Source of the DNA: Candidatus Nanopelagicales bacterium
Lineage (GTDB): Bacteria > Actinomycetota > Actinomycetes > S36-B12
Direction of reading: 5' to 3'
Assembly: GCA_036007925.1 (NCBI GenBank)
Contig: DASYOJ010000119.1
Span: 1-40,464, forward strand
DNA: 40,464 nucleotides
This document shows, piece after piece, positions 4,119 to 34,591 of the stretch. A model generated the notes under the pieces. The model was given only the letters and a program-made list of their open reading frames with translations. It was not told where the DNA came from and did no database searches. The position numbers and the translations under genes are program-made. Each line of letters starts with the position of its first letter. The stretch's first letter is position 1.

Positions 4119-5462
4119 TCAACTACGCCTGTCGCGCTTGAACCGATCGGTGGCCATCGGGGAATCGGTGAAACGGATCCGGGCCGGAACTTGCCACGGC
4201 TCCAGCGATGCCAGGCAGGCCGCGCGGATCCGACCGCGGATCTGCGCGCGCAGCCCGGGGTCGGACTGCTCGGTGTAGACCGTGGCTGCCACCAGGTGGC
4301 CGGTGAGCGGGGTCGGCTCGGCGGCCACCGCCACATCGAGGACGCCGGGTACCTCGGCGATCACCGATTCCACGGTAGCCGGGTGGACCTTTTGACCCCC
4401 GACGTTGATGGTGTCGTCTCGGCGGCCCAGGAAACGGATGCGATCGCCGTCCACTTCGACCTCATCACCGGTGTCGAACCACCCATCACGGTCGAAGGGA
4501 TCCGGCGCGTTCAAGTAGCCGGCCATCGCGGTGGTCGTGCGGATACGCAAGGTGCCGTCGACCACTCTCCACTGCAGTTCCGGACCTCCGATCGACACCC
4601 AGGTCGACTCGTCTACCGATCGAGACCGAACGATGCCGAGTTCGCTCATGCCGTAGGTTTGTAGCAATCTCACGTGGGGCAGTGCTTCGCGCACCGCGGA
4701 GAGGGTCGAAGCCGGCATCACCTCCGTGCCATAGGTGATCAGCTCAAGGCTCGCAAGCCGCGGCAGCTCCTGCGCTATCGCGAGCATGTTCAAGTAGGTG
4801 GGAGTAGTGGGCAGCACCTGGACACCTTCAGCCTGTATGCGCTCGGCGACCACACGCGGACTCCGATCGGGCATCGTGACGACGCAACCACCGTGCGCGA
4901 GGGTATGCAAGACGGTGTTGACACCCCCGATGTGATCGGACAGTAGGAAGGCTGCAACCTTCGCGGCTGGCCGTTGATCCTCAAACCGAGTCAACAGGCG
5001 GTTGACGTCATGCACCACACCTTTCGGTTCACCACTCGATCCACTGGTGAACAGGACAAGTCCGGGCGCATCCGCGGCGATCAACCGTTGATACGGCACC
5101 GGTGGGTGGGTGTCAGGACCAGAGTCGATACGCACACCGATCGGCTCCAAAGCCAACTCACCGCGCACATGGGCGATATCCCTCAGCCGTGCAACGGTGG
5201 CGACCGGAACCGACGGGTTGATGGGAACGGCCACCATGCCACTGGCCCAACTACCGAGCAGCCCAGCCATCCCGAGTCCACCGTGCTCAGCGCGAACTTC
5301 CAGCGCATCCCCCAACTCCAGGTCGCTCGCATCGATTGCGTAACGAACTTCCTCGCAAGCGGACAACAGTTCCGCGTAGGTCCAGGACCGTGAAGGTTCG
5401 GCGATTGCCTCGCGATCTCCGTAGCCACGAAGCCGATCGAGGAATACGGCGATGCCGCTCAC
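4119..5462 (-). CDS. Short ANL-superfamily adenylating enzyme (acyl-AMP/acyl-carrier-protein ligase-like)
   Basis: 447 aa. Motifs LFTSGSSGEPKGVVH (A3), YGMSELG, WFDTGD and FLGRRDDTINVGGQKVHP. GTGA overlap with the upstream SDR stop (5459-5462). Confidence 0.85.
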   Translation of the reverse strand: MSGIAVFLDRLRGYGDREAIAEPSRSWTYAELLSACEEVRYAIDASDLELGDALEVRAEHGGLGMAGLLGSWASGMVAVPINPSVPVATVARLRDIAHVRGELALEPIGVRIDSGPDTHPPVPYQRLIAADAPGLVLFTSGSSGEPKGVVHDVNRLLTRFEDQRPAAKVAAFLLSDHIGGVNTVLHTLAHGGCVVTMPDRSPRVVAERIQAEGVQVLPTTPTYLNMLAIAQELPRLASLELITYGTEVMPASTLSAVREALPHVRLLQTYGMSELGIVRSRSVDESTWVSIGGPELQWRVVDGTLRIRTTTAMAGYLNAPDPFDRDGWFDTGDEVEVDGDRIRFLGRRDDTINVGGQKVHPATVESVIAEVPGVLDVAVAAEPTPLTGHLVAATVYTEQSDPGLRAQIRGRIRAACLASLEPWQVPARIRFTDSPMATDRFKRDRRS

Positions 5463-6166
5463 GGCCCACCGAGATACATGATCTGCCCGGTCACGAGTTG
5501 GCTGCGCTCATCGAGGAAGAACGACACCGTCCAGTAGACGTCCTCCATGGTGGCTGGCTCCGACGAACTCAGCCGGGCCTGCAAAGCATCCAACGCGCTA
5601 CGCGGCACGCCGGAGGTCAGGTCGGTCGCGATCGCGGACGGCCCGATTGCATTGACCGTGATACCCCACTCGGCAAATTCCCGAGCCATCACTCGAGTCA
5701 GGTGCTCAACAGCCGCCTTACTTGCTCCATAGGCGGCCTCGCCCTCAAGGTGCAGTGGTACGGCAATCGAGGAAAGGTTCACGATCCGCGGCGACGCACT
5801 CTTGCGCAGGGCCCGCAGCGCCTCTCGGGACACCGTGAAGGTACCTACCGTATTTACCTCGAACATCCGAGCGACGGATTCAGTGGATGCCAAAGCAGCC
5901 GCGTTCATGGAGGCTATTCCGGCGTTGTTGACAACGGCGTCCAACCCACCGAAGTGCCGCTGGACGCGCCGGATTCCGGCGCGAACCGATTCAACATCCG
6001 TGACGTCCATTGGGAAGGACAGTTCCCGGGCACCCTCGACTTCCGCGCAGGTCCGGCTCACCGAAGCGACCGCCCAGCCATCGGCCACGAGGCGCTGGGC
6101 CAGGAACTCGCCGATTCCTCGACTCGCTCCAGTGATCAGGGCTACACGGCTCACGAAGCACCTCAC
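5459..6166 (-). CDS. Short-chain dehydrogenase/reductase (FabG-like)
   Basis: 235 aa. Rossmann motif ITGASRGIG, NNAG and catalytic YGASKAAV (YxxxK). GTGA overlap with the upstream ACP stop. Confidence 0.88.
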   Translation of the reverse strand: MRCFVSRVALITGASRGIGEFLAQRLVADGWAVASVSRTCAEVEGARELSFPMDVTDVESVRAGIRRVQRHFGGLDAVVNNAGIASMNAAALASTESVARMFEVNTVGTFTVSREALRALRKSASPRIVNLSSIAVPLHLEGEAAYGASKAAVEHLTRVMAREFAEWGITVNAIGPSAIATDLTSGVPRSALDALQARLSSSEPATMEDVYWTVSFFLDERSQLVTGQIMYLGGP

Positions 6167-6465
6167 CCACCCGAAGGGGTGGCCACTTGCTCGATGACGA
6201 AATCGCGAATGGTGCCGACAGTTCGCAAGGGACTGCGTTCCCGCGACATCGCTGTGTCGCTGGTCAAGGAAACCTCCGCACCGAAGTCCTCGTCGATACG
6301 CGCTTCGATCTCCATGACCACGGATACCAACCCCACGGAATCCAAGAAGGCCTCGGGCCCAATGAGCAAAGTCTCCGAATCCACCTGGGCAACCTCGATG
6401 CCGCGCTCGTCGGCGATCTGTCGAACCACCTCGATGATGACCGCTTCAGCGTCTTCGGGCGTCAC
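6163..6465 (-). CDS. Free-standing acyl/peptidyl carrier protein
   Basis: 100 aa, acidic helical protein with the phosphopantetheine-site-like FLDSVGLVSVVMEIE. GTGA overlap with the upstream methyltransferase stop. Confidence 0.75.
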   Translation of the reverse strand: MTPEDAEAVIIEVVRQIADERGIEVAQVDSETLLIGPEAFLDSVGLVSVVMEIEARIDEDFGAEVSLTSDTAMSRERSPLRTVGTIRDFVIEQVATPSGG

Positions 6466-7157
6466 TGCTGCACGCCTTTGATGGCGATTTCGAAGCCGAG
6501 GGCGAATGGACCGTCCTCGGGTGCGGTGATGACAGTGCGATCGGTCAAGCCTGCGGCTTCGATCAGTGCACGGGCATCAGCCAGCGACAACTTCTCCTCC
6601 ACGATCGACTCCGGTACGCCGTACTTCTCCCGCTCGGCATTGAAGGCGGCGCGGGCGTCGGGGTGCGCATCACGACGCACATCATGGATGACCACCATGC
6701 CATCGGGCGCCACCACACGAGCCATCTCCTTCACCGCCTCGAGCGGATCACGGAAGTGGTGCAAGGTCGAGCGGCTGATCACCAACGCAGCTGACGCGTC
6801 GGGAACGGGGAGTTCGTGAGCATCCCCGAACCGCACTTCCACCTGCGAACTCAACCCTGCTTCGGCCACCGCACGATTCGCCTCGGCAACCATGTCATCG
6901 AAGGAGTCCAGCCCGATGAACTGCAATTGCTCCAGTTCCGGTTCACGGGCAGCTCGGACGAGGAACTGCGCGGTTCCCGTTCCGATATCGACTAAGGTGC
7001 CTGTGCTGTCGCCGCGTTCGGACAGGATCTGCCCCAGCCGCCAGACCAAAGCATCGTCGAAGTGGCGCACGGCATTGGCGGTGTATTCGTCGTACTTGCT
7101 TGCGGAGTAACGGACCGCGAGGTCCTCCTCCATCTTCGGAACGCTTCCTTCGCTCAT
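6462..7157 (-). CDS. Class I SAM-dependent methyltransferase
   Basis: Motif I is LVDIGTGTAQF. Start set at the ATG (7157) in an ATGA overlap with the upstream gene's stop (7154-7157). The ORF track extends to 7181. Confidence 0.82.
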   Translation of the reverse strand: MSEGSVPKMEEDLAVRYSASKYDEYTANAVRHFDDALVWRLGQILSERGDSTGTLVDIGTGTAQFLVRAAREPELEQLQFIGLDSFDDMVAEANRAVAEAGLSSQVEVRFGDAHELPVPDASAALVISRSTLHHFRDPLEAVKEMARVVAPDGMVVIHDVRRDAHPDARAAFNAEREKYGVPESIVEEKLSLADARALIEAAGLTDRTVITAPEDGPFALGFEIAIKGVQQ

Positions 7158-8083
7158 GCCGATGCCTCCTCGTAGCCCCATTTGCGTTTGAGATTCTCCA
7201 GTCCCTCATCACCGAGCACCTCCCTGGCGATGACACCGAGTTCCTCACGGGTCAGGCCGGTGTCTCGCAGGAACTCACCGATCCAATGGTCGAGAGATGC
7301 ACCATCGGTCACCTTGCCCCCGGCGAAGCGGGCCACCAGTTGCTGGGCGTACTCGCGGCGCGCCGGGATCATGATTTCGTCCATCGACACACCCTCAGCG
7401 AGCGCTCTTGTTTCCAGGGTGGGTTGCCGCCACGCATCATCCGTAGTCATCACGACCGGCCAACCGCGCACGTCCACCACCGCGTAGCCGGACAGCGCAT
7501 CGGCCCAATCAGCGATATCGGCAGGTGAACACATGGCGATACGACCGCCGGCAGCTGCGAAGGGGACGAGTCGTTCGGTGTCGATCAACTCGACCATCGC
7601 TTCATGCACCCCCGGATAGATCGGATTCGCGACATCATCGACGATCGCCACGCCCCCGGCGCACAGGAGCTCGGCGGTGGTCAGCAGGTCGTGCAAGGTG
7701 CCCTCGTAGGTGTGATCTCCATCGATGCTGACCATGCGCACGGAGGATGCGCCCAGGGCGGCGAGTTCCGTGCGAATGCGGGTGGCATCGATGTCATTGG
7801 TGTTCCCCATCACCATGCTCGCATTCGTCAGGCCGTAGGACTCGATGTGCGGGCGAACGTGTGCATCATCGAGGTCCAAGCCGAGTACGGGACTGTCCGG
7901 ATCCAGTAATGCCAACAGGATGAGGCTGCGTCCGTGGTGGACACCGAATTCCACGCGAGCGCCTGACGTACCACGCTGCTGTTGACGTGCGTCGATATCG
8001 CAGATCAGTTGCGCAGCTCCGGGCTGCAACCAGCCGTCTACGTTCTCCAGTGAATCCAGGTATTGCCGCACCGCTTCACTCAT
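7154..8083 (-). CDS. SAM-dependent methyltransferase-like protein (Methyltransf_24/TylF-like core) with a C-terminal extension of about 90 aa
   Basis: VEFGVHHGRSLILLA ... SIDGDHTYEGTLHDL resembles the class I MT fold of the O-MT family 3/TylF type. ATG at 8083 is preceded by AAGGAGG at 6 nt spacing. The C-terminal third has no motif I recognise. Confidence 0.65.
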   Translation of the reverse strand: MSEAVRQYLDSLENVDGWLQPGAAQLICDIDARQQQRGTSGARVEFGVHHGRSLILLALLDPDSPVLGLDLDDAHVRPHIESYGLTNASMVMGNTNDIDATRIRTELAALGASSVRMVSIDGDHTYEGTLHDLLTTAELLCAGGVAIVDDVANPIYPGVHEAMVELIDTERLVPFAAAGGRIAMCSPADIADWADALSGYAVVDVRGWPVVMTTDDAWRQPTLETRALAEGVSMDEIMIPARREYAQQLVARFAGGKVTDGASLDHWIGEFLRDTGLTREELGVIAREVLGDEGLENLKRKWGYEEASA

Positions 8084-9266
8084 GGCCAACCTCCTTGAGC
8101 TGAATCAGGACGAGCGAATCAATGTCGTCCCATTGATCCCGGTCGGCGTTCTTCATCCCCCGAACGAAATCGTTGAATTGCTCCTCGGACAGCGAGATCC
8201 CCCGCTCGTGCAGCTCCCGTTCGAATGCCGCTCGCCCGGAACTCGGCCCAAGCACCAAGGCCAGCGGGGGTCCACCGACCTTGTCCGGCTCCCATGGCAG
8301 GTACGTGGTGGGGTTCTTCAAGATGCCGTCCTGATGGACGCCCGCTTCAGTTCGGTAGATGTTCTCGCCCACCAGAGCCTTGTGTAGATGGGTCGGCGGG
8401 CCGGTGCGTGTCGCACCCAAGCGACATGTGTCGTACAAGCGAGACAGGTCCAACATAACCGGACGTTGGTAACGGTCGACGTGAACATCGAGGCACATCG
8501 CCACTTCCTCGAGGGATGCGTTTCCGGCTCGCTCCCCGACCCCGTTCAACGCCACCTGTGCGATATCCGCACCGGCATCGACTCCGGCGACGGTGTTAGC
8601 TACCGCGAGCCCGAGATCATCATGGAAGTGAACCGCGAAGAGCGCTTCTGCTAAGCCGGGAAGTTCATCGAAAAGGTACCCAAGCCGTTCTCGAACATCC
8701 TCGGGGGTGGCGATGCCCACGGTGTCGGTGTAGCCGAGTACGCGAGCACCGGATTCCAGCGCAGCGCGGTACAACCGCACGAGCACCTCCGGTTCGGTGC
8801 GAGTGGCGTCCTCCGGACTGAACGCACAGGTGCCGACGGTTGCCACGGCATGGGCCACGCTCGCGCGAACTGTGGCCTCCAACTGGTCGACATCCATGTG
8901 GAGTTTGTCCCGTCGATGCACGGGACTACTACCCAGGAAGACCGTCACGGCACGGCGTTCGGGCGGCAACTCGCCCAGAGCAACGGCCACCGCGTCGATA
9001 TCGGACTCCCGCGCTCGAGCCAGTCCGGAAATGATGATGCCGTCCACCTCGGCCGCTACCCGTTGGACGGCGGCGAGTTCCCGCTCGGAGTTGGCCGGAA
9101 AGCCGGCGTCGATACTCGCAACACCAAGATCGCGAAGCGCACGCGCGAGTTCGACTTTCCCATCGGCGTCGAGCAGCGATCCGGGCATCTGATCACCTTC
9201 ACGCAAGGTTGTGTCGCTGAAGATGACCGGGCGCGGCCGCTCGTCGATCCGTGAAGCCCTGCTCAT
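8076..9266 (-). CDS. DRE-TIM metallolyase, 2-isopropylmalate/homocitrate synthase-like, lacking the LeuA regulatory domain
   Basis: [13 protein letters not shown] (DTTLRDGEQ motif) and [14 protein letters not shown] (HxH motif). About 397 aa from the ATG at 9266, which forms an ATGA overlap with the upstream stop. Confidence 0.82.
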
Positions 9267-10204
9267 GTCGCGAACTGCCCCATCCGCACGTAGATAAGCC
9301 GATCGGGATCCTGCGATTCGGTGCGTCCGTGCGCGGTTGTCGTGTTGTTGACCGCGAGGATCTCCCCCGGCTGCCAATCCACTCGCTGCTCCAGAGCTTC
9401 ACCGGCTGCGTAGACGGCGTAGACGATCTGCTCGGGAACACGCTCACCCTCGGGAGTGCGGATAACGATCGGCGGAGTGCGTCCTGACTCCTCGTGTAGG
9501 ACATCACCCGCCGTCCCAGCATCGGCGATCTGTTCACCGAACCACACCGGCAGCAGGCTGCTGAGCAGCCGCTCGGTTCCGTCGACACCGGCGACGATCG
9601 CGCTAGTCCGATATTGAGTGGTCACCACATCAGACTCGCGGTTGTACGTCATGGTGGTGTTGTTGGCCTGACAGATGCGATCCACCTCGTCGAGATCCTC
9701 GGTCATGAACGCCTGCCGCCAATCGGATCCTTCGAGTCGACGGTGGTAGACGAGATCATTCGCCCGCAGGTACTCGCGCACTTCCTCGGGCAGTGCTGCC
9801 AACAACTCGGCGCCATCGCACACGGTCGTCTCGCCACCTCCTCCCGCGGGCGGCACCTGGCAGTAGAACCACAAGACCTGTGGTCGCTCCTGGAAGTAGT
9901 ACATCTCCCCGTGCAGTGGAACCGGGAACGTCTGCGTGGATCCCGTTGCTGTCAGGATCGACGATTCGGTGTCGACCGTGGCTCGGTCGAGGGACCCAAA
10001 CCGGAACCCACCACCGCGGTAGTCGTGCCAGTCGGCGCAGATGGCATCGCTGATGGACACGAAATCATCGAGCGACGCATCGAACCCGCGGATCGCAACG
10101 CTTCCGGCGGTACGCAGCGCTCGGGCCACCTCCTGCGGATCGATGTCCGCGAACGACGAATCGTCGGACTCCTTCCTGATGGTCACGAGTGTGTCAGTGG
10201 TCAT
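9263..10204 (-). CDS. TauD/TfdA-family Fe(II)/2-oxoglutarate dioxygenase
   Basis: PLHGEMYY (HxE), GGGETTVCDG and TTAHGR (distal His plus Arg). About 313 aa from the ATG at 10204, which forms an ATGA overlap with the PKS stop. Confidence 0.78.
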   Translation of the reverse strand: MTTDTLVTIRKESDDSSFADIDPQEVARALRTAGSVAIRGFDASLDDFVSISDAICADWHDYRGGGFRFGSLDRATVDTESSILTATGSTQTFPVPLHGEMYYFQERPQVLWFYCQVPPAGGGGETTVCDGAELLAALPEEVREYLRANDLVYHRRLEGSDWRQAFMTEDLDEVDRICQANNTTMTYNRESDVVTTQYRTSAIVAGVDGTERLLSSLLPVWFGEQIADAGTAGDVLHEESGRTPPIVIRTPEGERVPEQIVYAVYAAGEALEQRVDWQPGEILAVNNTTTAHGRTESQDPDRLIYVRMGQFAT

Positions 10205-17600: not shown

Positions 17601-20600
17601 AGCCGCGCCATCAGCTGATTCCAAGACCACGTGGGTGTTGGTTCCACCGAAACCAAAGGCGCTGACCGCGGCGAAGCGCGCCGGATCGAGCCACGGCACG
17701 GACTTGTCGTACAGGACCACCGAGCCGGCCTCGTCCCGAAGCGAGTCGATAGGTGCCTGGACGCTCGGCTGCCCTGGTCGTACCCCGTGATGCAAGGCCA
17801 TGGCCGCCTTCATCAGGCCCAGCACCCCGGCACCAGCCTTCGCGTGACCCATCTGTGCCTTGATCGAACCGACCGAACACGATGTGGACGACAACCCACG
17901 AACCTCACTGATCGTGGTGATCTCCGTTCGATCACCGACAACCGTCCCGGTGCCGTGCGCTTCATAGAGCCCCACCTGTGCAGGCTCGACATCGCAACTG
18001 TCATAGGCACGGCGCAGCGCGAGTTGCTGACCGGAGCTTTGTGGAGCAGTCAGGCTCAAGCCGCGACCATCCGAACTCGAGCCACTACCGCGGATGACCG
18101 CGTAGATGCGATCCCCATCTCGCCTGGCGTCCTCGAGGCGCTTGAGCACGAGAATTCCCACCGCTTCGCCGATCACGATGCCATCAGCGGACTCATCGAA
18201 CACATGGGCTCGATCTCTCGGTGACAACGCGTGGCTTGCGGCAAACGACAAGTACACGCGCGGCGCCATCGCGGTATCCGCGCCGCCGGTGATGACGACA
18301 TCGGTCCGACCGGTTTCCAACTCACGGATAGCAGCCTCGACCGCAGCTAAGGACGATGCGCACGCCGAATCGACGGTGTGATTCGGCCCCTTGAAGTCGA
18401 AGCGGTTGGCGATGCGTCCGGTCGTTACGTTGTTCAAGAAGCCGGGGAAGGACTCTTCGGTCCAACTCGGGAGTCTGCTCCATGCTTGTTCCTCCACGGC
18501 TGCACTGACACTGGAAAGCATCGCCCGTGCGGCGTACCCCTCGCCGATATCGCCACTGCTCGAGGACATTCCGACGATCACCCCGACTCGGGATCGATCG
18601 ACGCGACTGGCGTCGAACCCGGCGTCGGCCAAGGCTCGACGTGTTACCTCCAGGGCGATCAACTGTGCCGGTTCGATGTGCGCAAGGGCCGTGGGCGGGG
18701 TGCCAAAGCGCATGGGGTCGAAGGGGATCGGATCGATGAAGCCGCCATGAACGGCCACCGTCGGATCCGGGGCTGCCGGATCAGGATCGAGTACCCGCGC
18801 TGGATCGAATCGCTCGGGGGGAATCGGTCGAGTGGCCACCCGCTGCTGCACCACGGTGTCCCAGAAACCAGCAAGATCACTGGAATCGGGAGCTACGACG
18901 GACATCCCGACGATGGCCACCGGGACCGACTTGATGGCATCTGCGCGATGTGGCGCTTTCGTATCCCAGGTCGCATCGATCACCTCCCGGCCTCCGGCTA
19001 GGACGTCTTCGTGCAGCGCAGCGATGTTGGTCACGTGCGCGTGCATCGTCGCAACATCCCCGAGCATGTACATGCCTTCACGCAACTGCCGATCGCGGTC
19101 GACCGAGACAACCGCCTCCCCCTCACGGATCTCGGCGCGGCTTGCCATGCGCAGCCGTCCGAGGGTGAGGGCTTCGAGGTGACTCGATCGGGTTTCCGGA
19201 TCCACACCGGTCAGTTCGCGAGCTCGTGCTTCGAACTCCGAAACGAAACCGCTCATCGCAACTCGCGTGGAGTGGCCCACCGCGGTGGTGACCGTGCTCG
19301 TGCGATCGCACGACAACGCAACATCTTGGAACAATTGAGGAATCGCCCCACTGCTGACCGCTTCCTCAGTGAACAAGTACGCGGTTCCCATCAGCAAGCC
19401 GACGGACACTCGATCGAGGAGGCCGCCGAGTTCCCAGGATGCGAGCGTGGCAGCCGCCGCCGAACTCACCGAATCGTGGATGCCCCCTGCAAGGAAGACC
19501 GAGGCCTGCGCGGACTCATCTGCTCGGAGTAGATCGGCGATCTCATGGAGCGCCGACTGCCACAAGACCGCACTCGAGAGCGGGCCGACATGGCCGCCGC
19601 ACTCGTACCCTTCGAGGACGAAGCGTCGAACCCCCGCTTTCCACAGCAAAGACACGATCCGTGCAGTTGGAGCGTGCGCATAGGTGATGATCCCGTGCGA
19701 TTCGAGATCGAGCACCTGATCGGGGCGGGCGCCGGCAACCACCGCAACCGAAGGCCGGGTACGCAGCACCGCTTCATGTTGCGGCTGCCAGATGTCCTGC
19801 GGCGCGAAGCCGAGCATGCCAACACCCCACGCGCGATCGGCGAGTTCCGCGCTCGTCTCGCTGAGTACGTCATTTGCTGCCGGGCCCCGCTTGAGAGCAA
19901 GGGCCACGAGCGGCAACGCACCTTCCTGCGCCACCGCACTCGCGAATCCCGGGACATCGCTGACTCTGGTCATCGGCCCTTGAACGAGCGGTGCCCCAAG
20001 GCCTAGTTCCCCGCACAGCGGCGAACCACTTCCGAGCAGACTCTCGGCGCGCGCCGCAAGCGCCGCTTCGGGATCGAGCCGGTAGCCCGACAGCACCGTA
20101 GATAGCGGCCGATCGACGTTCTGCCACGCGATCGCCAGCCCCTGACCCACGGGAATGAGATCGGAGAAAACATCCCGCCAACCCCACGGCAAGTCCTCAC
20201 TTCCACGATCGAAATCCGCCACCAGCGATGCTTGGACCTCCTGGGCAACGGGCAGGTTTCCCCGCAGCAGGAAACGCACTTGCCTGTCTGCTGGTCCGAG
20301 CGCCACCGCTTCGGTTCCATCAAGGTCGCGCACGGTACTGCGTAGCCCGGTGATCCGCGCTTGGCTTGTCAACACCAACTCATCGCGCAACACCACACCA
20401 GCAGCACCTGCAGTTCGCAGTGCTGCGGCAATGGACGGACTGATCGCACCGAAGGCGAGCACCTCACGTGCCCCTACTTTGCGCGCTTGCTGTAGGAGGA
20501 TCGCGGTAGATGTCGATCCGATCGCTCCGCCGGATTCCGACCCGCGCACAACCACGTGATCGTCGCTCGCGAACAACTCGACGATGCGCTGCGCATCGGT

Positions 20601-20936
20601 GACTTCGAGCCATGCCTGCGCACCAGTCGAAGCGAGTTGCTCGCGGATCGACATCCAATCGTCAACAGGATCAGCCCACGAATCGCTCACGATCACGCTC
20701 ACGCCCGGAGCAGCCTCTGGCTGAATCTGTGTCCACTGCGATGGCGTCACTCGGAGAACGAAGCGATCGCACTGCTTGCTCATCAATCGGATGTCGATGA
20801 GGCGATCACGGATCGCGGTGTTCGCCAGATCGAGGCCCGGTGTCACCTCTGCCGACGAGCACGAGCGCACCCACTCCTGGATTCGGATGACGTCCCCCGG
20901 CGGCGAATCGGGAACGCGTAGCGCAACGGTGATCAC
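14628..20936 (-). CDS. PUFA-synthase-like type I PKS protein A: degenerate NMO-like domain, PfaD-like ER, KS, AT, ACP, KR
   Basis: 2102 aa. ER motifs LVQGPMTRVSD, LEGYECGGHVG and FLAGGI. KS motifs VDSACASS, YEAHGTGT and IKAQMGHAKAGAG. AT motifs GHSYGEF and GAFHS. ACP motif LGVDSIKRVEIL. KR motifs FGGARGITRA and S...YAAAN. GTGA overlap with the GT stop at 20933-20936. Confidence 0.93.
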   Translation of the reverse strand: MITVALRVPDSPPGDVIRIQEWVRSCSSAEVTPGLDLANTAIRDRLIDIRLMSKQCDRFVLRVTPSQWTQIQPEAAPGVSVIVSDSWADPVDDWMSIREQLASTGAQAWLEVTDAQRIVELFASDDHVVVRGSESGGAIGSTSTAILLQQARKVGAREVLAFGAISPSIAAALRTAGAAGVVLRDELVLTSQARITGLRSTVRDLDGTEAVALGPADRQVRFLLRGNLPVAQEVQASLVADFDRGSEDLPWGWRDVFSDLIPVGQGLAIAWQNVDRPLSTVLSGYRLDPEAALAARAESLLGSGSPLCGELGLGAPLVQGPMTRVSDVPGFASAVAQEGALPLVALALKRGPAANDVLSETSAELADRAWGVGMLGFAPQDIWQPQHEAVLRTRPSVAVVAGARPDQVLDLESHGIITYAHAPTARIVSLLWKAGVRRFVLEGYECGGHVGPLSSAVLWQSALHEIADLLRADESAQASVFLAGGIHDSVSSAAAATLASWELGGLLDRVSVGLLMGTAYLFTEEAVSSGAIPQLFQDVALSCDRTSTVTTAVGHSTRVAMSGFVSEFEARARELTGVDPETRSSHLEALTLGRLRMASRAEIREGEAVVSVDRDRQLREGMYMLGDVATMHAHVTNIAALHEDVLAGGREVIDATWDTKAPHRADAIKSVPVAIVGMSVVAPDSSDLAGFWDTVVQQRVATRPIPPERFDPARVLDPDPAAPDPTVAVHGGFIDPIPFDPMRFGTPPTALAHIEPAQLIALEVTRRALADAGFDASRVDRSRVGVIVGMSSSSGDIGEGYAARAMLSSVSAAVEEQAWSRLPSWTEESFPGFLNNVTTGRIANRFDFKGPNHTVDSACASSLAAVEAAIRELETGRTDVVITGGADTAMAPRVYLSFAASHALSPRDRAHVFDESADGIVIGEAVGILVLKRLEDARRDGDRIYAVIRGSGSSSDGRGLSLTAPQSSGQQLALRRAYDSCDVEPAQVGLYEAHGTGTVVGDRTEITTISEVRGLSSTSCSVGSIKAQMGHAKAGAGVLGLMKAAMALHHGVRPGQPSVQAPIDSLRDEAGSVVLYDKSVPWLDPARFAAVSAFGFGGTNTHVVLESADGAAVGAQRWPAELLVIGASTPSDAAQQAERLAAELEIRGSIPRNVAHGAARAASGPWRFALVMLDPLDAAGQLRECATRWKEDDYSDLVEVTTPPNVAEIFPGQAAQRINSLREASVYLPDLRRTLALVDALIGDELPYNLIETIYPFRARSDHEADAQRSRIADTRMAQSALAALGMGLADLLDSLGVRPTVAFGHSYGEFMALHRAGVLGREDLVDLTRVRGAAMAASDDGRGTMAALEIDADTAAELVSGTEATVACFNAPRQMVVSGARADVEDIARRASDTGASAVVLPVGGAFHSALMTDAIGPLTGAIAGYRLAPPSITVIGNADGASYPASVEEIRQRMSDHLMQPVRFVEQVQRAVEAGVSVFVEMGPGSTASSLITQIDPNARVVPLERPGRPMSGVLDAIGELWTLGAVDSVQALFEGRLPVPGEDALRGTDDTTWFVDGGGVRRGRMDGDYDGREPMLTAQTAGQVLAATNIGSSDAVVEFQRTMQDFLRVHEQVMDQALGQTSGGVRRPRITPPTPRLTPGVAQREVLVEPKRDEPVAAASMPDSSAPADIQEVLVALISDRTGFDPGVIGADMDLESELGVDSIKRVEILSMLRERLGIERREGVDLSRLRTVREIVVALQEDGSEARASSGDEVEVPRRVRTWVDVPVVAGEAFCTSEVHADDHSKAAAVLIESAMDALSRWQTSPSDLSVIEGAVGPVRTVAAAARCVAAERGENATTRLRISEETGLRSIDMRLAEQVVSDVDLSVLRGNVVLAFGGARGITRAAVEALPDCTVIVVGRSAAEWELPEGWQALPADVRDIAQVDSVIDAVLTEHGRIDGVVFGSGIVRDAPLVELDLTDARAVIETKVLGLDNVCRSLARAENIPSWMVVFGSVTGAFGNPAQSAYAAANEAMTVLAASWAERWPVTGVRAIQWGPWFGTGLQGMVSEVVADLLRERGIHVIEPTVGARAFVIEAASAAVDPGFVDIVIGDGPWTR
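14802..15314 (-). other. Protein A ketoreductase catalytic subdomain (approximate)
   Basis: VVLAFGGARGITRA Rossmann motif and the S/Y/N triad in SVTGAFGNPAQSAYAAANEA. Confidence 0.8.
15702..15923 (-). other. Protein A single ACP domain, PUFA type (approximate)
   Basis: DLESELGVDSIKRVEILSML. The Ser codon is at 15819-15821. Confidence 0.85.
16437..17324 (-). other. Protein A acyltransferase domain (approximate)
   Basis: FPGQAAQ, GHSYGEF and GAFHS (malonyl-type HAFH-like). Confidence 0.85.
17619..18926 (-). other. Protein A ketosynthase domain (approximate)
   Basis: Catalytic Cys codon at 18360-18362 (DSACASS), plus HGTGT and GHAKAGAG. Confidence 0.88.
18987..20003 (-). other. Protein A enoyl reductase domain, PfaD/nitronate-monooxygenase type (approximate)
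   Basis: GPM motif, ECGGHVG, AGGI and MGTAYL. Confidence 0.8.
20352..20714 (-). other. Protein A degenerate NMO/TIM-barrel-like repeat (approximate)
   Basis: HVVVRGSESGGAIGSTSTAILLQQ ... VLAFGAISPSIAAALRTAGAAGVVL parallels the true ER segment RFVLEGYECGGHVGPLSSAVLWQS ... VFLAGGIHDS. It has Ala in place of the GGH histidine and FGA in place of AGG. Confidence 0.55.
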
Positions 20937-22213
20937 GCGACCGCCCTGCTTCCCAGCAGATGGTCGATGAGGAAGTCGGCCCCGGTGCGGACTCCGTCGT
21001 CGTGGGCGATGGATTCGGCGAGGTCCTGCGCGCGGGTGCGGTAACGGGGTTCATCCACGGCATTGCCGATCGCCCGAGCCAGCGATTCGACCTTCAGTTC
21101 CTGGATCGGGAGCGATGCCGGAGCTACCCCCAAGGCCAGTGCGCGATATCCCCAGAAGGGTTGATCCAGACAGAACGGAACCACTACCTGCGGAACGCCG
21201 GCGCGGTAGGCGGCAGCGCTGGATCCCACCCCGCCGTGGTGAACGAACGCCCGTACCCGCGGCAGCAGCCAGTCATGCGGGAGTCGGTCCACCACCAAGA
21301 CATCATCACCACGGACCGAATCCGGATCGAAGGCACCCCATCCACTCAACAGCAGGACTCGTTGACCGGCCCGACGGGCCGCCTCGACCACGGTGCGCGC
21401 CAACGCCCGCGGATCGGGAGCGACCACGCTGGAGAATCCGACCGCGATCGGCGCATCTCCTCCTTCGAGGAACTGCCTCACCTCATGCGGCGGTTGCCAG
21501 GATCCATCAGCGGGCAACCGCCAGTAGCCGACCACTCGCGCCTGCTGTGGCCAGTCCGGTGGTTGCGGAATCACCGCCGGGCTGACACCCACCACAGTGG
21601 GCAGTGCGCGCAAGCGTCGAAGGCTCTGCCTGCTGGATTGAATCGGCAGCCCAAGACGTTCGGCCTCCGCGCCCATGATCTGCACCATCGGACCCGAGCC
21701 CAGCCGATTCAGCGCATCAACAGCCCAGTGACCGAAACGCTGCCCCACGGGTCCGAACCGGGACCAACCCGGCTGCCACAGCGGAGGAAGGGTGCGCGTT
21801 GGCAGTGAGGGGAAGATCGAGGCGACCGCGGCTGGGATGTGCCGCTGATGGGCGAAAGGCGCAGCCCACGCCATCGAGTAGTCCAAGATCACCTTGTCCG
21901 AGGAGTCGATGCAATACGTGATCGCGCGCGCGAGTTGCGCGGTGAAATACGGAAGCGCCTTGCCGTAGAAGCCCGCGATGGAGCGAATGCCCCGGCCCGG
22001 CTCACGAAATGCTCGACCCTCGTCGGTTTCGTAGAAGGCTCGAGTGTCGCCCGGCATCGGGTAGAAGCTCATGCCGCGCTCGATGCACGATGCGCGGTAG
22101 TTCATGTGCGTAGCCATGCGAATGTCCACGCCTTGCTCGACCAGCCCGGTGGCCAACGCGATCATCGGCTCGACATCACCGTTGGTGCCGACGGTCAGCA
22201 CGGTGATCCGCAT
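20933..22213 (-). CDS. GT1-family glycosyltransferase (MGT/UDP-glycosyltransferase-like)
   Basis: 426 aa. MRITVLTVGTNGDVEP N-terminus and the donor-binding HHGGVGSSAAAYRAGVPQVVVPFCLDQPFWG. Confidence 0.88.
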   Translation of the reverse strand: MRITVLTVGTNGDVEPMIALATGLVEQGVDIRMATHMNYRASCIERGMSFYPMPGDTRAFYETDEGRAFREPGRGIRSIAGFYGKALPYFTAQLARAITYCIDSSDKVILDYSMAWAAPFAHQRHIPAAVASIFPSLPTRTLPPLWQPGWSRFGPVGQRFGHWAVDALNRLGSGPMVQIMGAEAERLGLPIQSSRQSLRRLRALPTVVGVSPAVIPQPPDWPQQARVVGYWRLPADGSWQPPHEVRQFLEGGDAPIAVGFSSVVAPDPRALARTVVEAARRAGQRVLLLSGWGAFDPDSVRGDDVLVVDRLPHDWLLPRVRAFVHHGGVGSSAAAYRAGVPQVVVPFCLDQPFWGYRALALGVAPASLPIQELKVESLARAIGNAVDEPRYRTRAQDLAESIAHDDGVRTGADFLIDHLLGSRAVA

Positions 22214-22225
22214 GGCCGTTCCCTG

Positions 22226-22504
22226 CTACGGCCGCGATGGCGCGGCGGCCAGCGCATCGACGATTTCGGCGACGCTGAGATCCGATCGCGCCTTGCCGTC
22301 AGCTTCCAACAGCGCCTCTAGTTCCAAGACGACATCCAACCGATCCTCGGTGGTGGCGAGAACGTGCACGATGTCCACGGAAGACAACTGCAGGTCAGCC
22401 ACCAGCAACGTGGTGTCAGTGATGTCGACGTCGTCGTAGCCCAAACCGAGGAGAGTCGCACCGAGCACATCGGTGAGTGTCTCGCGGGCGAGGTCGGCGC
22501 TCAC
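22226..22504 (-). CDS. Free-standing carrier protein (ACP-like, deviant SSV motif)
   Basis: 92 aa, acidic. ADLQLSSVDIVHVLATTEDRL sits at the helix II position where DSL is usual. GTGA overlap with the flippase stop. Confidence 0.65.
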   Translation of the reverse strand: MSADLARETLTDVLGATLLGLGYDDVDITDTTLLVADLQLSSVDIVHVLATTEDRLDVVLELEALLEADGKARSDLSVAEIVDALAAAPSRP

Positions 22505-24150
22505 GATGTCTTCCCGGTATTCCCGGCCTTCCCGGGATCCGTCGCGATCACCGGTCGCTTCAGGAAGTAGGTCCAGAAACCGGAATCAACATGCAACTTG
22601 CGCTTGACCCACCACCACATGGCGCTCTGGGCAACGATCATGCTTATCAGGGTCGAGAACGCCGCACCGATCATGTCGAATGCGGGCACCAGCACGATCA
22701 ACAGTGCAACGTCCAGGAATATCTGCCCGCCGTAGATGACGCTAACGTCTCTCCCGCGCCCGGTCATGATCAGCAGGTAGCCGCTCGGGCCGAAGGCCAG
22801 CGAGACGAACTGGGCCGCCAACAAGATGGCCAGAGGTGCGCGGGCGTCGGCGAAACCCTCGCCGTACAAACGCAAGATCGGTCCGGCGGCGATCAACAGC
22901 ACTACCACCACCACGATCGCGGGTATCAAGATGAGCCGGAAGTAGTTGCGGACTACGTACTGCACCAGGTCCACTCGGCCGACCGCGAAGAACGGCGCGA
23001 AGAACGGAACAGCGCCCGCGTAAGCGGCCGAAGGCAGATTGCCCAGGATCTCCGCGACGGTGATCGCGGCGGAGTAGGCCGCCACCGTGTCGCTTCCCTT
23101 AAAGATGGCGAGTGCATAGAGGTCCGCGCGGTACAGCAAGATCACCAGCGCCGACATCAATAGCACCGGCGGCCCCGACTTGACCCAGGTCTTCCAATCG
23201 GCCATGTCGACGCCGATGCTGGATCGGAAACCCTTCGGTAGTCCGCCTCGCATCCCGAACCACTGCAGGAACAAAGCCAGCAGAGTGGTTCCGACGAGCA
23301 CGAGCATCAGATCGCCGGTGGTCAGCGAGTTCGCGAAGGCGACCACGATCCCCGCGACGGCCATGGACAACAGCGGTGCGACGAGTTGCCCCGGGAACGC
23401 ACTCCACGCCGGGCGCGCCAGGTTCACCAGGAATGAGCCCCACAGTTGACTCATCCCCAAGATGCCGGCGAACACACCGCCGAGGACCACTGCTCGGAAG
23501 TCGTCTCCGGCATCGCGGTCCAAGAACGCAAGGCCCAGGGCCAAGATCGCGATCAGGATGCTGATCGCGATGGTCACGGCACTCGAGGCAATGATCAAGC
23601 CGCGTACTTTGCTGAAATCATTCTGCTGCTGGTAGACGGTTTGGAATCGACCGAGCGATGTGGCCATTCCCAAGTGGGGCACGTAGGCCAACGCCATCGC
23701 GGTGCCCGCGATCAGCGAGAAGTAGCCGAAGGCGGATTGGCCGAGCCAGTTCGCATACAGGATTGAGGCGACCTGGGCGATGACCACTGCGGGCGCGAGC
23801 ACCAGGATCGTCTTGAGGTAGCTCGAGCGCTCCCGATCGTGGATCTCGTCGATGGACCACTGGGATGGGTCCCGGTCAGCGAGGTGTGGCCCGGCGATCG
23901 CGGACTTGATGCGGCCGCTCTCATCGCGCGTGAACTGGATCAGGCCCTGCTGGTGCAATTCCTCGAGGAAATCGTGCGTTGCTCGCTCATCTTCGGCTAC
24001 CGCGTCCGCGACATCGGCGACGGCTACGTGGCTTCCGTGAGACAAGGTCCGCAAGATCGAGCGGTGCTTGTCGGTGTGATGACCCGTCGACCGGCTACGC
24101 GCATGGCCGAAGTGCTCCAGCGCGGGATCGGTGGGCTTGAGGAAGGTCAT
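22501..24150 (-). CDS. MOP-superfamily (Wzx/polysaccharide-biosynthesis-type) flippase with an N-terminal winged-helix-like domain of about 120 aa
   Basis: 549 aa. The N-terminus (HRSILRTLSHGSHVAVADVADAVAEDERATHDFLEELHQQGLIQFTRDESGRI) looks like a wHTH. The remainder is 12 or more hydrophobic helices with a Polysacc_synt-like start (YANWLGQSAFGYFSLI). Confidence 0.75.
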   Translation of the reverse strand: MTFLKPTDPALEHFGHARSRSTGHHTDKHRSILRTLSHGSHVAVADVADAVAEDERATHDFLEELHQQGLIQFTRDESGRIKSAIAGPHLADRDPSQWSIDEIHDRERSSYLKTILVLAPAVVIAQVASILYANWLGQSAFGYFSLIAGTAMALAYVPHLGMATSLGRFQTVYQQQNDFSKVRGLIIASSAVTIAISILIAILALGLAFLDRDAGDDFRAVVLGGVFAGILGMSQLWGSFLVNLARPAWSAFPGQLVAPLLSMAVAGIVVAFANSLTTGDLMLVLVGTTLLALFLQWFGMRGGLPKGFRSSIGVDMADWKTWVKSGPPVLLMSALVILLYRADLYALAIFKGSDTVAAYSAAITVAEILGNLPSAAYAGAVPFFAPFFAVGRVDLVQYVVRNYFRLILIPAIVVVVVLLIAAGPILRLYGEGFADARAPLAILLAAQFVSLAFGPSGYLLIMTGRGRDVSVIYGGQIFLDVALLIVLVPAFDMIGAAFSTLISMIVAQSAMWWWVKRKLHVDSGFWTYFLKRPVIATDPGKAGNTGKTS

Positions 24151-24213: not shown

Positions 24214-24504
24214 TTAGCCGACGTGCTTGGCCCAGGCGTCGAGGAACACCGTGGCGTCCTCGATCGGCAGGATCTCGGTCTCCGAGCCGTCGAAAAGCGG
24301 ATTACCACGGACCCAGCCAGCGAGTTCGTAACTCGAGTCGGCGTTGATCACGTAGACGTGACCGCCACTCAGCAGCACGTAGGCCGCCTCGATCTCGCCC
24401 GCAGCCATCGCCTTCTTCAATTCGTCGGAGCGGTAGCCCGCCTCGCCGCCGGAATGGTCGTACTTCACGTCGCCGTGACGACGGTTGATGATCATGAATT
24501 TCAT
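24214..24504 (-). CDS. Small (96 aa) hypothetical protein, possibly a ferredoxin-like fold (muconolactone-isomerase-like)
   Basis: Start taken at MKFMIINRRH, preceded by GGAGG at 7 nt spacing. The size and the pattern ...NPLF....E..P are reminiscent of muconolactone isomerase. That functional call is weak. Confidence 0.55.
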   Translation of the reverse strand: MKFMIINRRHGDVKYDHSGGEAGYRSDELKKAMAAGEIEAAYVLLSGGHVYVINADSSYELAGWVRGNPLFDGSETEILPIEDATVFLDAWAKHVG

Positions 24505-24647: not shown

Positions 24648-25532
24648 TCAACCGCCGAGCAGGACATTCACCAACGCCGGCGCATCCTCCAATTGGGGCT
24701 GATGGCCTACCCCGGGTAGTTCGACCGTCCGCCCGTCCCATCGGGCGGCGAGCGCGCGCTGCTGCTCGACCGGCCAGCCGTCGTCGTTCGCACCCCACAC
24801 CACCCGAACGGGTGGACAGGGCTCCGGGGGCTCGATTGCGCCGGTTTCCAGCAGGATGCGGGCGCCTTCATCGAGGGCGACGGAGTCGTAATCGCGCCAC
24901 CGAGTTCGCTCGAATTCAGCCACGGCCGGGGCCACTTCGGGTGCGCCGGCCGCACGTTCGAGGCCGAGTTTGCGCTCCCACAGGGCGTCGCGGTCCACCC
25001 GTGGGAGAAAGCGACGGATCAACGGGAACACACCGGCGCGGTGCGCCGGCAGCGCCGCCGGGCCTGAACATAGGAGCGTGATCGAGGACCAATCGCACTC
25101 CCCAGCTGCCTGTTGGGCGATCAGGCCCCCGAGGGAGTGGCCGACGAGATGGCCCGGCCCCAACGACCATCGAGATCGCACCTGCTCGGCCACCGCACAA
25201 CAATCTGCAGCCATCGCCTCCAGGGAACAGTCCTGCGGAATCTTCGCCGAACTCGATTCGCGCTGCCCGCGAAGGTCGAACGCCACGGCGCCTCGCCCCT
25301 GCTCGGCAAGCAGCGACATCACCCCATAGAAGTCCTCTTTGCTCGACAGGTACCCCGGCACGAAGCAGAACCATTCGGCCGCTGCGTCCATACCGACGGC
25401 AGTAGCGGCTAACGGGCCGCGGGCGGTAGGGACGGACATCCGCACCGCACCGGCCGGCAGTCGCAGTCGGGCTTCGTGCGGGTCGGCGGCTTTGTGCACA
25501 TTCCCTCCAGGTGACGGAGGCTGCATGCCCAC
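24648..25532 (-). CDS. Alpha/beta-fold hydrolase
   Basis: 294 aa with nucleophile elbow VGHSLGG and FVPGY (HG-like oxyanion region). The exact start is uncertain. Confidence 0.8.
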   Translation of the reverse strand: MGMQPPSPGGNVHKAADPHEARLRLPAGAVRMSVPTARGPLAATAVGMDAAAEWFCFVPGYLSSKEDFYGVMSLLAEQGRGAVAFDLRGQRESSSAKIPQDCSLEAMAADCCAVAEQVRSRWSLGPGHLVGHSLGGLIAQQAAGECDWSSITLLCSGPAALPAHRAGVFPLIRRFLPRVDRDALWERKLGLERAAGAPEVAPAVAEFERTRWRDYDSVALDEGARILLETGAIEPPEPCPPVRVVWGANDDGWPVEQQRALAARWDGRTVELPGVGHQPQLEDAPALVNVLLGG

Positions 25533-27775: not shown

Positions 27776-27782
27776 ATCGACT

Positions 27783-27801
27783 GGGATGCATATCGCATCC
27801 C
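27783..27801. terminator. Hairpin after the Fe-S gene, overlapping the toxin-antitoxin promoter region
   Basis: GGGATGC-atatc-GCATCCC, 8 nt after the TAA stop. It could act as a terminator and/or as the antitoxin operator. Confidence 0.45.
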
Positions 27802-27808
27802 ATCTTGG

Positions 27809-27814
27809 TATATT
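27809..27814 (+). promoter_or_regulatory. Candidate -10 hexamer TATATT for a leaderless antitoxin transcript
   Basis: TATATT ends 6 nt before the ATG at 27821, and there is no Shine-Dalgarno sequence between them. Confidence 0.4.
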
Positions 27815-27820
27815 TTGCTC

Positions 27821-34510: not shown

Positions 34511-34581
34511 GCGGGTGTAGTTCAATGGCAGAACATCAGCTTCCCAAGCTGACAGCGCGGGTTCGATTCCCGTCACCCGCT
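34511..34581 (+). tRNA. tRNA-Gly (anticodon CCC)
   Basis: Cloverleaf folded by hand. Acceptor GCGGGTG/CACCCGC, D arm GTTC-AATGGCA-GAAC, anticodon arm TCAGC-TTCCCAA-GCTGA, T arm GCGGG-TTCGATT-CCCGT. 3' CCA is not encoded. Confidence 0.9.
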
Positions 34582-34591
34582 CCCATAAAGC

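Follow-up and report, generated by a model that had tools for sequence, protein, structure and literature searches.

The window analysed here is a contig of 40,464 nucleotides from a Candidatus Nanopelagicales bacterium (assembly GCA_036007925.1, contig DASYOJ010000119.1), an uncultured actinobacterium of freshwater type, and it carries on its minus strand an operon of 14 genes (positions 4119-25532, about 21 kb). Judged by its domain architecture, the core of this operon is an iterative secondary-lipid synthase of the Type M/N/O/P class catalogued by Shulse and Allen in 2011 (PMC3098273), and the product of the operon is probably a sugar-bearing long-chain lipid. We regard it as reasonably probable that 4119-25532 is a functional 14-gene operon built around this synthase, with the other gene products acting in the stepwise glycolipid pathway proposed below. 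While the class of the core enzyme pair has been known since 2011, the set of helper enzymes and the strictly syntenic 14-gene variant are new, as is the recurrent trio of Claisen enzyme, methyltransferase and dioxygenase beside a synthase class that has no assigned product. A preliminary description of the same DNA had read positions 4119-24150 as an orphan operon of 12 genes for an unprecedented hybrid of a polyunsaturated fatty acid (PUFA) synthase and an enediyne polyketide synthase (PKSE).

Extent, integrity and conservation of the operon

The table of open reading frames (ORFs) contains an unbroken co-directional chain from 24150 to 4119, and all eleven junctions quoted in the preliminary description were found when the minus strand was read: five GTGA stop-start overlaps (at 22501, 20933, 6462, 6163 and 5459), four ATGA stop-start overlaps (at 14628, 10201, 9263 and 7154), an 8-nt overlap at 8076-8083 (ATGAGTGA) and, as the sole gap in the quoted chain, 12 nt at 22214-22225. 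These junctions and the ORF chain support the view of a single co-directional, translationally coupled biosynthetic operon, and the 12-gene chain stands as described. Its limitation to 4119-24150 does not, since orf96 and an α/β hydrolase gene extend the unit upstream to 25532. Independent gene calls on homologous metagenome contigs yielded the same protein lengths (92, 426, 2102, 313, 396, 309, 231, 100 and 447 aa), and the start codons first chosen are thus supported. The overlap at 6163 is uncertain because the short-chain dehydrogenase (SDR) is called at 231 aa on the contigs of relatives, with its start 9 nt past the stop codon of the gene for the second carrier protein, cp2; synthase B may start at GTG 14640 instead of ATG 14631. 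Disruption of the large ORFs, which had been named as a reason to doubt the operon, was not found, all being intact and of equal length across several independent assemblies. Promoter and terminator scans of both operon ends gave nothing informative.

The same genes in the same order were found in four lineages, in which synthase B is 94, 85, 74 and 51% identical to the protein of the window. Relatives with a 94%-identical synthase B came only from metagenomes and metagenome-assembled genomes (MAGs), and the one GTDB species representative that carries such a relative is a Candidatus Nanopelagicales MAG (L008). This is the nearest genome, and the mycobacterial framing of the preliminary description was dropped for that reason. 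The 51% lineage is represented by a Thermoleophilia/Miltoncostaeaceae MAG (L001) with the same 13 genes in identical order, the exceptions being a hydrolase gene (35% identity) moved downstream of the ligase gene and a different downstream flank, with no dnaK after it. In all close relatives orf96 and the α/β hydrolase gene precede the transporter gene. One 33-kb metagenome contig (L002) is collinear with positions 214-24601 of the window at 85% nucleotide identity, and Nei-Gojobori comparison of the window with this contig gave dN/dS values of 0.03-0.17 for 13 of the 13 genes tested (the operon genes other than that for the α/β hydrolase), including orf96 and both carrier proteins. These 13 genes are under purifying selection. 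From the conserved order, the purifying selection and the identical ORF lengths, the unit 4119-25532 is therefore, as far as sequence comparison can tell, real, functional and mobile as a block. By tblastn, the complete set of seven distal genes, transporter and orf96 was found solely in the four close lineages. The term orphan thus holds in the sense that the product is not known, and fails in the sense of a unique gene set, because four lineages share the set and parts of it are more widespread.

The core synthase and its class

Synthase A (2102 aa; 14628..20936) comprises, by Pfam and NCBIfam, a degenerate enoyl reductase (ER)-like segment, an FMN-type ER (NMO/FabK/PfaD-like), a ketosynthase (KS), a malonyl/acyltransferase (MAT), one acyl carrier protein (ACP) domain and a ketoreductase (KR), the Pfam order being NMO, ketoacyl-synt, Acyl_transf_1, PP-binding, KR. 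Its translation carries the KS motifs DSACASS, EAHGTGT and GHAKAGAG, the acyltransferase (AT) motif GHSYGE, the KR motif YAAAN and the ACP motif LGVDSIKRVEIL. Pfam returned a single PP-binding match and no tandem ACPs. Residues 1-300 (20037-20936, minus strand) are a degenerate copy of the FMN-type ER region ahead of the intact ER, with a sub-threshold NMO match (E 1.8e-4) and ESGGA in place of ECGGH (GGH to GGA); the ER fused to synthase A keeps its GGH motif intact. Against the PfaA model TIGR02813, synthase A scored 669 bits (E 1e-200) and did not reach the cut-off of 1010.

Synthase B (1476-1479 aa; 10201..14631), whose start overlaps the stop codon of synthase A, comprises a KS, an AT, a dehydratase (DH) and an integrated phosphopantetheinyl transferase (PPTase), matched in Pfam as KS, AT, PS-DH and ACPS. 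Its DH is of the polyketide synthase (PKS) type (PF14765/PF21089) and not of the FabA type, and its KS, with the AT next to it, keeps Cys-His-His; there is no chain length factor (CLF). In a 20-sequence alignment of the synthase B family the invariant residues include Cys159, His291 and His326 of the KS, Ser603 and His714 of the AT, His955 and Asp1139 of the DH, and Asp1375, Glu1377 and Lys1412-Glu1413 of the PPTase. Both KS Cys-His-His triads and both AT GxSxG motifs can be read in the translations of A and B. The domain list of the preliminary description was thus reproduced with Pfam and NCBIfam, its carrier proteins and winged-helix/MatE domains falling below cut-off, and the domain scans likewise support its account of the core as an iterative lipid synthase resembling fatty acid synthases (FAS) and PKSs, one that has an ER and a single ACP but neither a CLF nor a FabA-type DH pair.

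This architecture is already on record. In Table S1 of Shulse and Allen (PMC3098273) a gene for ER-KS-MAT-ACP(1-3)-KR is followed, gene by gene, by one for KS-AT-PPTase and one for an ACP in Type M (three Frankia strains, Renibacterium, Actinosynnema and S. avermitilis), Type N (Chryseobacterium and Chitinophaga) and Type O (Dinoroseobacter, Parvularcula and Gloeobacter), while Type P (Azotobacter ArsA/ArsD and Beijerinckia) combines an ER-KS-MAT-ACP-KR subunit with a PPTase protein. The same study assigns to the PPTases of Types M-T an hShxH (P1b') motif in place of (F/S)NxSH, and places a gene for an acyl-CoA synthetase fused to an ACP (ACS-ACP) ahead of the synthase pair in the Type M cluster of Actinosynnema mirum. 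The window has the ER-KS-MAT-ACP-KR subunit, the adjacent KS-AT-PPTase subunit, a discrete ACP gene (cp1) and, in the sequence VSLTH of synthase B, a PPTase motif that fits the hShxH type. Since Table S1 already describes the architecture of A, B and a discrete ACP, the label of a PUFA/PKSE hybrid is unnecessary, and with ArsA sharing the large subunit the combination cannot be called unprecedented.

Nor does the integrated PPTase point to a PKSE, as had been supposed. A protein search with synthase B returned 1040 matches, and among the matches listed were many KS-AT-DH-PPTase proteins of about 1400-1650 aa and many NMO-KS-AT-ACP-KR proteins of 2300-2500 aa, from Streptomyces, Actinomadura, Frankia, Baekduia, proteobacteria, planctomycetes and others. 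When GTDB genomes were scanned and the best 80 loci, from many phyla, were kept, nearly all of them had an A-type partner match, mostly at 31-42% identity (tblastn). Synthase A is 38-41% identical over 1500-1800 aa to the partners in Frankia, Streptomyces and Roseicyclus loci, and about 36% identical over about 1630 aa to the Chryseobacterium partner. When the whole synthases were used as queries, a structure search gave nothing but generic modular PKS/FAS KS-AT structures and was non-discriminating.

Comparison with characterised systems

With Types M, N and O the window shares the three-part core (ER-KS-MAT-ACP(n)-KR, KS-AT-PPTase and discrete ACP), the PPTase motif type, a synthase A that is 31-42% identical to members, the hydrolase and GT1 neighbours of Frankia-type loci, and the TauD and MT2 genes of a Roseobacter-group locus. 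In contrast to these types, however, synthase A of the window has a single ACP, the discrete ACP is encoded upstream of the synthases and not after B, and the window adds seven genes (TauD, an isopropylmalate synthase (IPMS)-like enzyme, two methyltransferases, a second carrier protein, SDR and ligase) as well as genes for a MOP transporter and a 96-aa protein. Since Types M, N and O all lack a known product, they offer no function that could be transferred to the window.

The ArsABCD system of Azotobacter vinelandii (Type P) resembles the window in that ArsA, like synthase A, is an ER-KS-MAT-ACP-KR protein with one ACP, and in that ArsD carries a PPTase; we take the full domain order of ArsD to be KS-AT-DH-PPTase, what is documented being that it is a PPTase protein. 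Its long alkyl chain is kept on the ACP and passed directly to downstream condensing enzymes. In Ars, however, the recipients of the chain are two type III PKSs whose genes lie between arsA and arsD, whereas in the window A and B overlap directly and domain scans found no type III PKS (chalcone/stilbene-synthase) domain in the operon. The candidate downstream condensing enzyme of the window is instead the IPMS-like one, and its product is predicted to be glycosylated. The Azotobacter ars locus was absent from the best 80 loci of the single GTDB scan.

In its overall logic the operon plausibly works like the heterocyst glycolipid pathway (Hgl; Type F), in which the very long chain made by a PUFA-like iterative synthase is glycosylated and, once exported, forms an envelope layer. 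In contrast to the window operon, which has none of these, Hgl uses separate ER, KS and CLF-AT proteins, tandem ACPs and an ACP-thioesterase/reductase protein, and the exporter type also differs. Enediyne PKSEs share with the window an iterative KS-AT...DH arrangement and a C-terminal integrated PPTase. A PKSE is, however, a single KS-AT-ACP-KR-DH-PPTase polypeptide that has neither an ER nor a second KS-AT and makes a conjugated polyene, whereas in the window the domains belong to two proteins and include an ER and a second KS-AT. Family scans made without E3/E4/E5/E10 reference sequences assigned all operon genes but orf96 to other families, and no 4HBT-type thioesterase was matched. Compared with a canonical Pfa synthase, the window lacks tandem ACPs, a CLF and the two FabA-type DH domains, besides failing to pass the PfaA model. 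Literature searches found no characterised glycolipid from this synthase class, and those for literal domain strings matched nothing; reviews as of 2026 count just a handful of such specialised lipids as known.

A recurrent Claisen enzyme and methyltransferase

The IPMS-like gene (396 aa; 8076..9266) encodes a DRE-TIM Claisen-condensing enzyme resembling IPMS and homocitrate synthase (HCS), with an HMGL-like match at E 9e-65 and an HCS_D2 match. Its best solved relative is the catalytic domain of Neisseria meningitidis IPMS (3rmj, E 2e-66), and the metal and catalytic motifs are retained, though altered. It is among the most conserved products of the operon, at 70% identity to L001 second only to orf96 (67%+ range). 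MT2 (231 aa; 6462..7157) is a class I S-adenosylmethionine-dependent methyltransferase (UbiE/BioC-like, from Pfam and NCBIfam matches of which those of BioC/UbiE type are weak).

A metagenome scan with the IPMS-like protein found orthologues solely in the four close lineages. In at least eight more distant loci, with IPMS-like proteins of 45-49% identity, an MT2 homologue (39-45%) lies directly 3' of the IPMS-like gene, and several of the loci with this pair adjoin A/B-type synthase genes, TauD, SDR, GT1 together with a CmcI-like methyltransferase, or an ABC exporter. An IPMS-like gene followed by MT2, often with TauD, is thus a sub-cassette that recurs with this synthase class. The cultured Roseicyclus marinus CCMM001 (L075:10509-17893) has the order A, TauD, GT_PLOD-like, Citrate_synt, MT2 and AT-DH-PPTase (B'), the citrate-synthase-family gene (12256-13383; PF00285, E 2e-24) standing directly 5' of MT2. 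A 664-aa ORF in this locus was considered as a fusion of a split B with MT2 and rejected, its N-terminal 430 aa being a spurious Arg/Gly-rich extension; the real genes in that region are the GT_PLOD-like gene, the citrate-synthase-like gene and a stand-alone MT2. Two metagenome loci (L106:913-11868 and L108:1238-17710) encode AT-DH(-PPTase), IPMS-like enzyme and MT2, TauD, SDR, several glycosyltransferases, a CmcI-like methyltransferase and an ABC exporter, which suggests a wider family of uncharacterised glycolipid clusters.

Because two unrelated families of 2-oxoacid Claisen enzymes sit directly 5' of MT2 and near TauD, the arrangement suggests that a Claisen step between a thioester enolate and a 2-oxoacid is integral to the chemistry of this group. 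Such a condensation is common to LeuA, CimA and homocitrate synthases and to the fungal alkylcitrate synthases. The enzyme of the window differs from LeuA, CimA and homocitrate synthases in that it consists of HMGL-like and HCS_D2 only, without the LeuA regulatory domain, and stays under every NCBIfam equivalog cut-off, LeuA and NifV included (best NF002086, 355.6 bits against 532). By analogy with the fungal alkylcitrate synthases, which condense long acyl chains, its nucleophile may be a long acyl thioester, and the enzyme would then be the off-loading step. To our knowledge, acetyl-CoA is always the nucleophile of the known DRE-TIM Claisen enzymes (LeuA, CimA, HCS), and we know of none that uses a long acyl thioester. 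No PKS cluster with an IPMS-like enzyme was found in a literature search. Where IPMS-like relatives lay on long contigs that have no cluster genes, their neighbours were an aldolase, a topoisomerase, tetratricopeptide repeat proteins and sulfotransferases; since short relatives also occur in such unrelated contexts, the subfamily appears to have been recruited to the clusters and not to be dedicated to them.

Predicted glycosylation and export, and the distal genes

ORFs flanking the synthase pair in related loci, near-identical copies left out, were clustered, and the recurrent neighbours were an α/β hydrolase (25 loci), an ACP of about 100 aa (17 loci), a GT1 (14 loci), a phosphodiesterase-family protein (9 loci) and a membrane-anchored methyltransferase (8 loci). 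In Frankia and Baekduia loci B is followed by a small ORF, the hydrolase and one to three GT1 genes. From this recurrence beside the synthase pair, cp1, the hydrolase and the GT1 of the window are therefore family-typical.

The GT1-family glycosyltransferase (426 aa; 20933..22213; Pfam EryCIII-like_C, Glyco_transf_28 and UDPGT) has yeast sterol 3-beta-glucosyltransferase (5xvm/5gl5, E 5e-40) as its best full-length solved relative, which fits a predicted lipid acceptor. The cp1 gene (22226..22504) encodes a discrete carrier protein of 92 aa with a weak PP-binding match (E 0.011). Neither cp1 nor cp2 reaches Pfam cut-offs, and each has an invariant Ser in a DSxx-type motif. Ser42 of cp1 aligns with the DS motif of the ACPs encoded after the synthase pair in loci of Dyadobacter and Solimonas, and tblastn gave 34-42% identity to such ACPs in four loci (L009, L015, L026 and L030); from these alignments cp1 would correspond to the discrete ACP gene of Type M/N/O clusters.

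The α/β hydrolase (294 aa; 24648..25532; Pfam Abhydrolase_6/1 and a weak Thioesterase match) lies upstream of the operon in the 94% relatives and is a candidate chain-release or acyl-transfer enzyme. Its closest solved structures were uninformative. The hydrolase/GT1 pair recalls RhlA/RhlB and the MT2/hydrolase pair BioC/BioH, in both cases as analogies only. Immediately 5' of the transporter gene, orf96 (96 aa; 24214..24504) also occupies this position in L001, L002-5 and L088, with 67-85% amino-acid identity, against 51-74% for synthase B across lineages, and with dN/dS values of 0.06-0.14 it is among the best-conserved genes of the cluster. It had no Pfam match even at E<=5, and its single-sequence AlphaFold model, with a predicted local distance difference test score of 59.8, was not usable. 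The membrane protein of 549 aa (22501..24150) combines a soluble N-terminus of about 110 aa with a MOP/Wzx/MurJ-like transporter body of about 10-12 hydrophobic segments in residues 115-511. Its matches to MatE (22.7 bits), HVO_A0114 and SpoVB were all below cut-off and those to winged-helix families weak; its L088 orthologue gave a weak Polysacc_synt match, and the protein is kept in all four lineages at 52-91% identity.

Among the distal genes, the TauD/TfdA-family Fe(II)/2-oxoglutarate dioxygenase (313 aa; 9263..10204; Pfam TauD E 8e-27) has At3g21360 and the sulfoquinovose dioxygenase SqoD (9yut; PMC12951627) as its best solved relatives, SqoD being the nearest bacterial one and, at E 7e-11, too distant for a substrate assignment. 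Homologues at 32-38% identity stand beside the same synthase type in four loci (L075, L108, L111 and L030). About 10 kb from the cluster the window also has a TauE/SafE sulfite-exporter-family gene (35377-36138, minus strand), notable only in that SqoD is a sulfonate-cleaving sugar dioxygenase.

MT1 (309 aa; 7154..8083; Methyltransf_24 in Pfam, resembling CmcI and rhamnosyl O-methyltransferase) is the least conserved gene, at 29-86% identity across lineages, and no relative of it was found in the PDB. In L106 a Methyltransf_24 gene similar to MT1 lies directly 3' of a GT1 gene. Because of this adjacency and the likeness to rhamnosyl O-methyltransferase and CmcI, O-methylation of the sugar is the favoured role for MT1. 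The second carrier protein, cp2 (100 aa; 6163..6465), had no Pfam match and has an invariant LDSVGLV motif, the Ser of which is in register when its profile is aligned with that of cp1 and the ACPs (hhalign 72%, E 3e-5); its dN/dS was 0.12. The SDR (231-235 aa; 5459..6166) is FabG-like, with adh_short at E 2e-47 and the FabG models below cut-off. The last gene (447 aa; 4119..5462; AMP-binding and AMP-binding_C) encodes a short ANL (adenylate-forming) ligase, whose best matches, all below cut-off, were fatty-acyl and amino-acid adenylating enzymes. It is a candidate for loading cp2, and the ACS-ACP gene of the Actinosynnema Type M cluster may serve as a precedent for ligase and carrier protein together. 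The presence in the operon of a GT1, a MOP-type transporter and a second arm of ligase and carrier protein, as first described, is thus borne out, the transporter by way of sub-threshold matches.

Proposed pathway and alternative explanations

In the pathway that we propose, the PPTase domain of synthase B would activate the ACP of synthase A as well as cp1 and cp2, and the ANL ligase would place a carboxylic-acid primer on cp2, as the ACS-ACP protein would in Actinosynnema. A and B would then run full KS/KR/DH/ER cycles with malonyl units to give a long, largely saturated acyl chain. The IPMS-like enzyme would join a thioester enolate, most likely that of the long acyl thioester, with a 2-oxoacid and so release the chain with an alkyl-(citra)malate-type head group, which MT2 would methylate and TauD hydroxylate. 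The GT1 would glycosylate a hydroxyl, MT1 would O-methylate, probably on the sugar, the α/β hydrolase would release or transfer the acyl chain, and the MOP-type protein would flip the glycolipid outward. All of the findings fit the general prediction of the preliminary description, namely a reduced long-chain lipid that receives a sugar and is exported, together with a second unit bound to a carrier. Only tentatively do we suggest the narrower version, in which a DRE-TIM enzyme, interchangeable with the citrate-synthase family, terminates an ArsA-type chain on a 2-oxoacid to give new alkyl-(citra)malate glycolipids, which would carry a methyl ester, a hydroxyl group and a sugar and be flipped to the envelope.

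Several points weigh against the proposed pathway. None of the Type M, N or O clusters has a known product, and ArsA, which makes the saturated alkyl chain of cyst phenolic lipids, is the only class member that has one and the sole biochemical anchor. Even here, the synthesis of C22-C26 saturated acids from malonyl-CoA by ArsA and ArsD is reportedly a finding of Miyanaga in 2008, with which secondary citations agree. The hydrolase of the window is only weakly related to the family-typical hydrolase (hidden Markov model E 6e-10), and the transporter assignment rests on sub-threshold matches. As source of the glycosyl-acceptor hydroxyl, no reductase or other enzyme was found beyond TauD and the tertiary alcohol of an alkylmalate. 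Finally, the product of the IPMS-like enzyme could equally be a small alkylmalate that serves as primer or decoration.

This last point is developed in a model that we think unlikely, though somewhat worthy of attention. Here the IPMS-like enzyme would make a small 2-alkylmalate from acetyl-CoA and a 2-oxoacid, MT2 would mask its carboxylate as a methyl ester (BioC logic), and the ligase would load the half-ester on cp2 for extension by A and B, to give a chain whose omega end is branched, hydroxylated and methyl-esterified, with the α/β hydrolase acting like BioH or as a thioesterase. The tight pairing of the IPMS-like gene with MT2, the weak BioC/UbiE-type matches of MT2, the ligase and second carrier protein within the operon, the ACS-ACP gene ahead of the pair in Actinosynnema and the use of acetyl-CoA by the known DRE-TIM enzymes are all in its favour. 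However, the citrate-synthase-family enzyme of Roseicyclus stands beside the same partners, and fungal enzymes of that family condense long acyl chains, while several loci with the IPMS-like gene and MT2 show no ligase within the available sequence. The destination of the product is a separate matter: that the same pathway makes a secreted specialised metabolite, such as a biosurfactant or an antibiotic-like glycolipid, and not a structural envelope lipid, we consider improbable. The exporter of L108 is an ABC transporter, with no MOP protein, the distribution of the cluster is patchy, with movement between classes of Actinomycetota, and PUFA-like synthases do feed secreted hybrids such as the zeamines and chitinimines (PMC13291983). 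Against this, strong purifying selection retains the cluster in several related uncultured lineages, and the known products of the wider group, namely heterocyst glycolipids and cyst phenolic lipids, are envelope components.

Two further explanations fare worse. A true PUFA-synthase/PKSE hybrid making a polyunsaturated or polyene chain could be argued from the 1e-200 match of synthase A to TIGR02813, its PUFA-type ACP motif and the C-terminal PPTase of B. As mentioned above, however, the PfaA score falls short of the cut-off, A carries a fused ER whose GGH motif is intact, tandem ACPs, CLF and FabA-type DH are missing, and a PKSE is a single protein without an ER. Moreover, the exact two-protein architecture has already been described, and ArsA, with the shared large subunit, feeds saturated alkyl chains into phenolic lipids; a hybrid is thus very improbable. 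The distal genes do resemble families of primary metabolism (LeuA-like, FabG-like and acyl-CoA-ligase-like), and one might divide the region into two unrelated adjacent units, a lipid synthase operon from the transporter to B and a small-molecule or amino-acid-related operon from TauD to the ligase. Yet stop-start overlaps span the B/TauD junction and all later ones, and the order of the 12 genes is kept in relatives down to 51% identity, the most distant of which has another downstream flank. Other lineages have TauD, MT2 and IPMS-like or citrate-synthase-like genes intermixed with A and B, and the LeuA and FabG models all stay below their cut-offs. This division, hardly credible in our view, is largely refuted.

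Synthases of Types M, N and O are widespread (Frankia, Streptomyces, Bacteroidota, roseobacters, planctomycetes and acidobacteria), and since the catalogue of 2011 they have stayed without an assigned product. The pairing of such a synthase with a 2-oxoacid Claisen enzyme, a methyltransferase and TauD gives a testable handle on the identity of an orphan lipid, and with the synthase and all candidate tailoring, glycosylation and export genes packed in 21 kb the operon is a convenient unit for heterologous expression. It would offer a first look at the specialised envelope lipids of uncultured Nanopelagicales-type actinobacteria and, if the narrower version were true, a previously unknown class of bacterial alkyl-(citra)malate glycolipids in uncultured aquatic actinobacteria.

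Flanking genes

The upstream border of the cluster is marked by a divergent gene (25589-27775, plus strand) for an Rv0338c-like protein with Fe-S (4Fe-4S dicluster) and CCG domains. Past the ligase gene the annotation of L002 has HSP70, GrpE, DnaJ and MerR. With these annotations on one side and the Fe-S/CCG protein on the other, the flanking genes had been rightly identified, both the Fe-S/CCG gene and dnaK-grpE-dnaJ being real.

Further along the window, an ORF of 309 aa (27433-28362, plus strand), the 5' end of which is probably over-extended, matches a PemK/MazF-type toxin domain in its C-terminal 90 or so residues. Upstream of a gene for a bifunctional PutA-type proline dehydrogenase/aldehyde dehydrogenase (30648-34049, plus strand), and on the other strand, is a gene for an AraC-family regulator that has a PAS domain (29590-30279, minus strand). 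A single tRNA-Gly(CCC) at 34511-34583 (plus strand) was the sole Rfam/ARAGORN match in the window.

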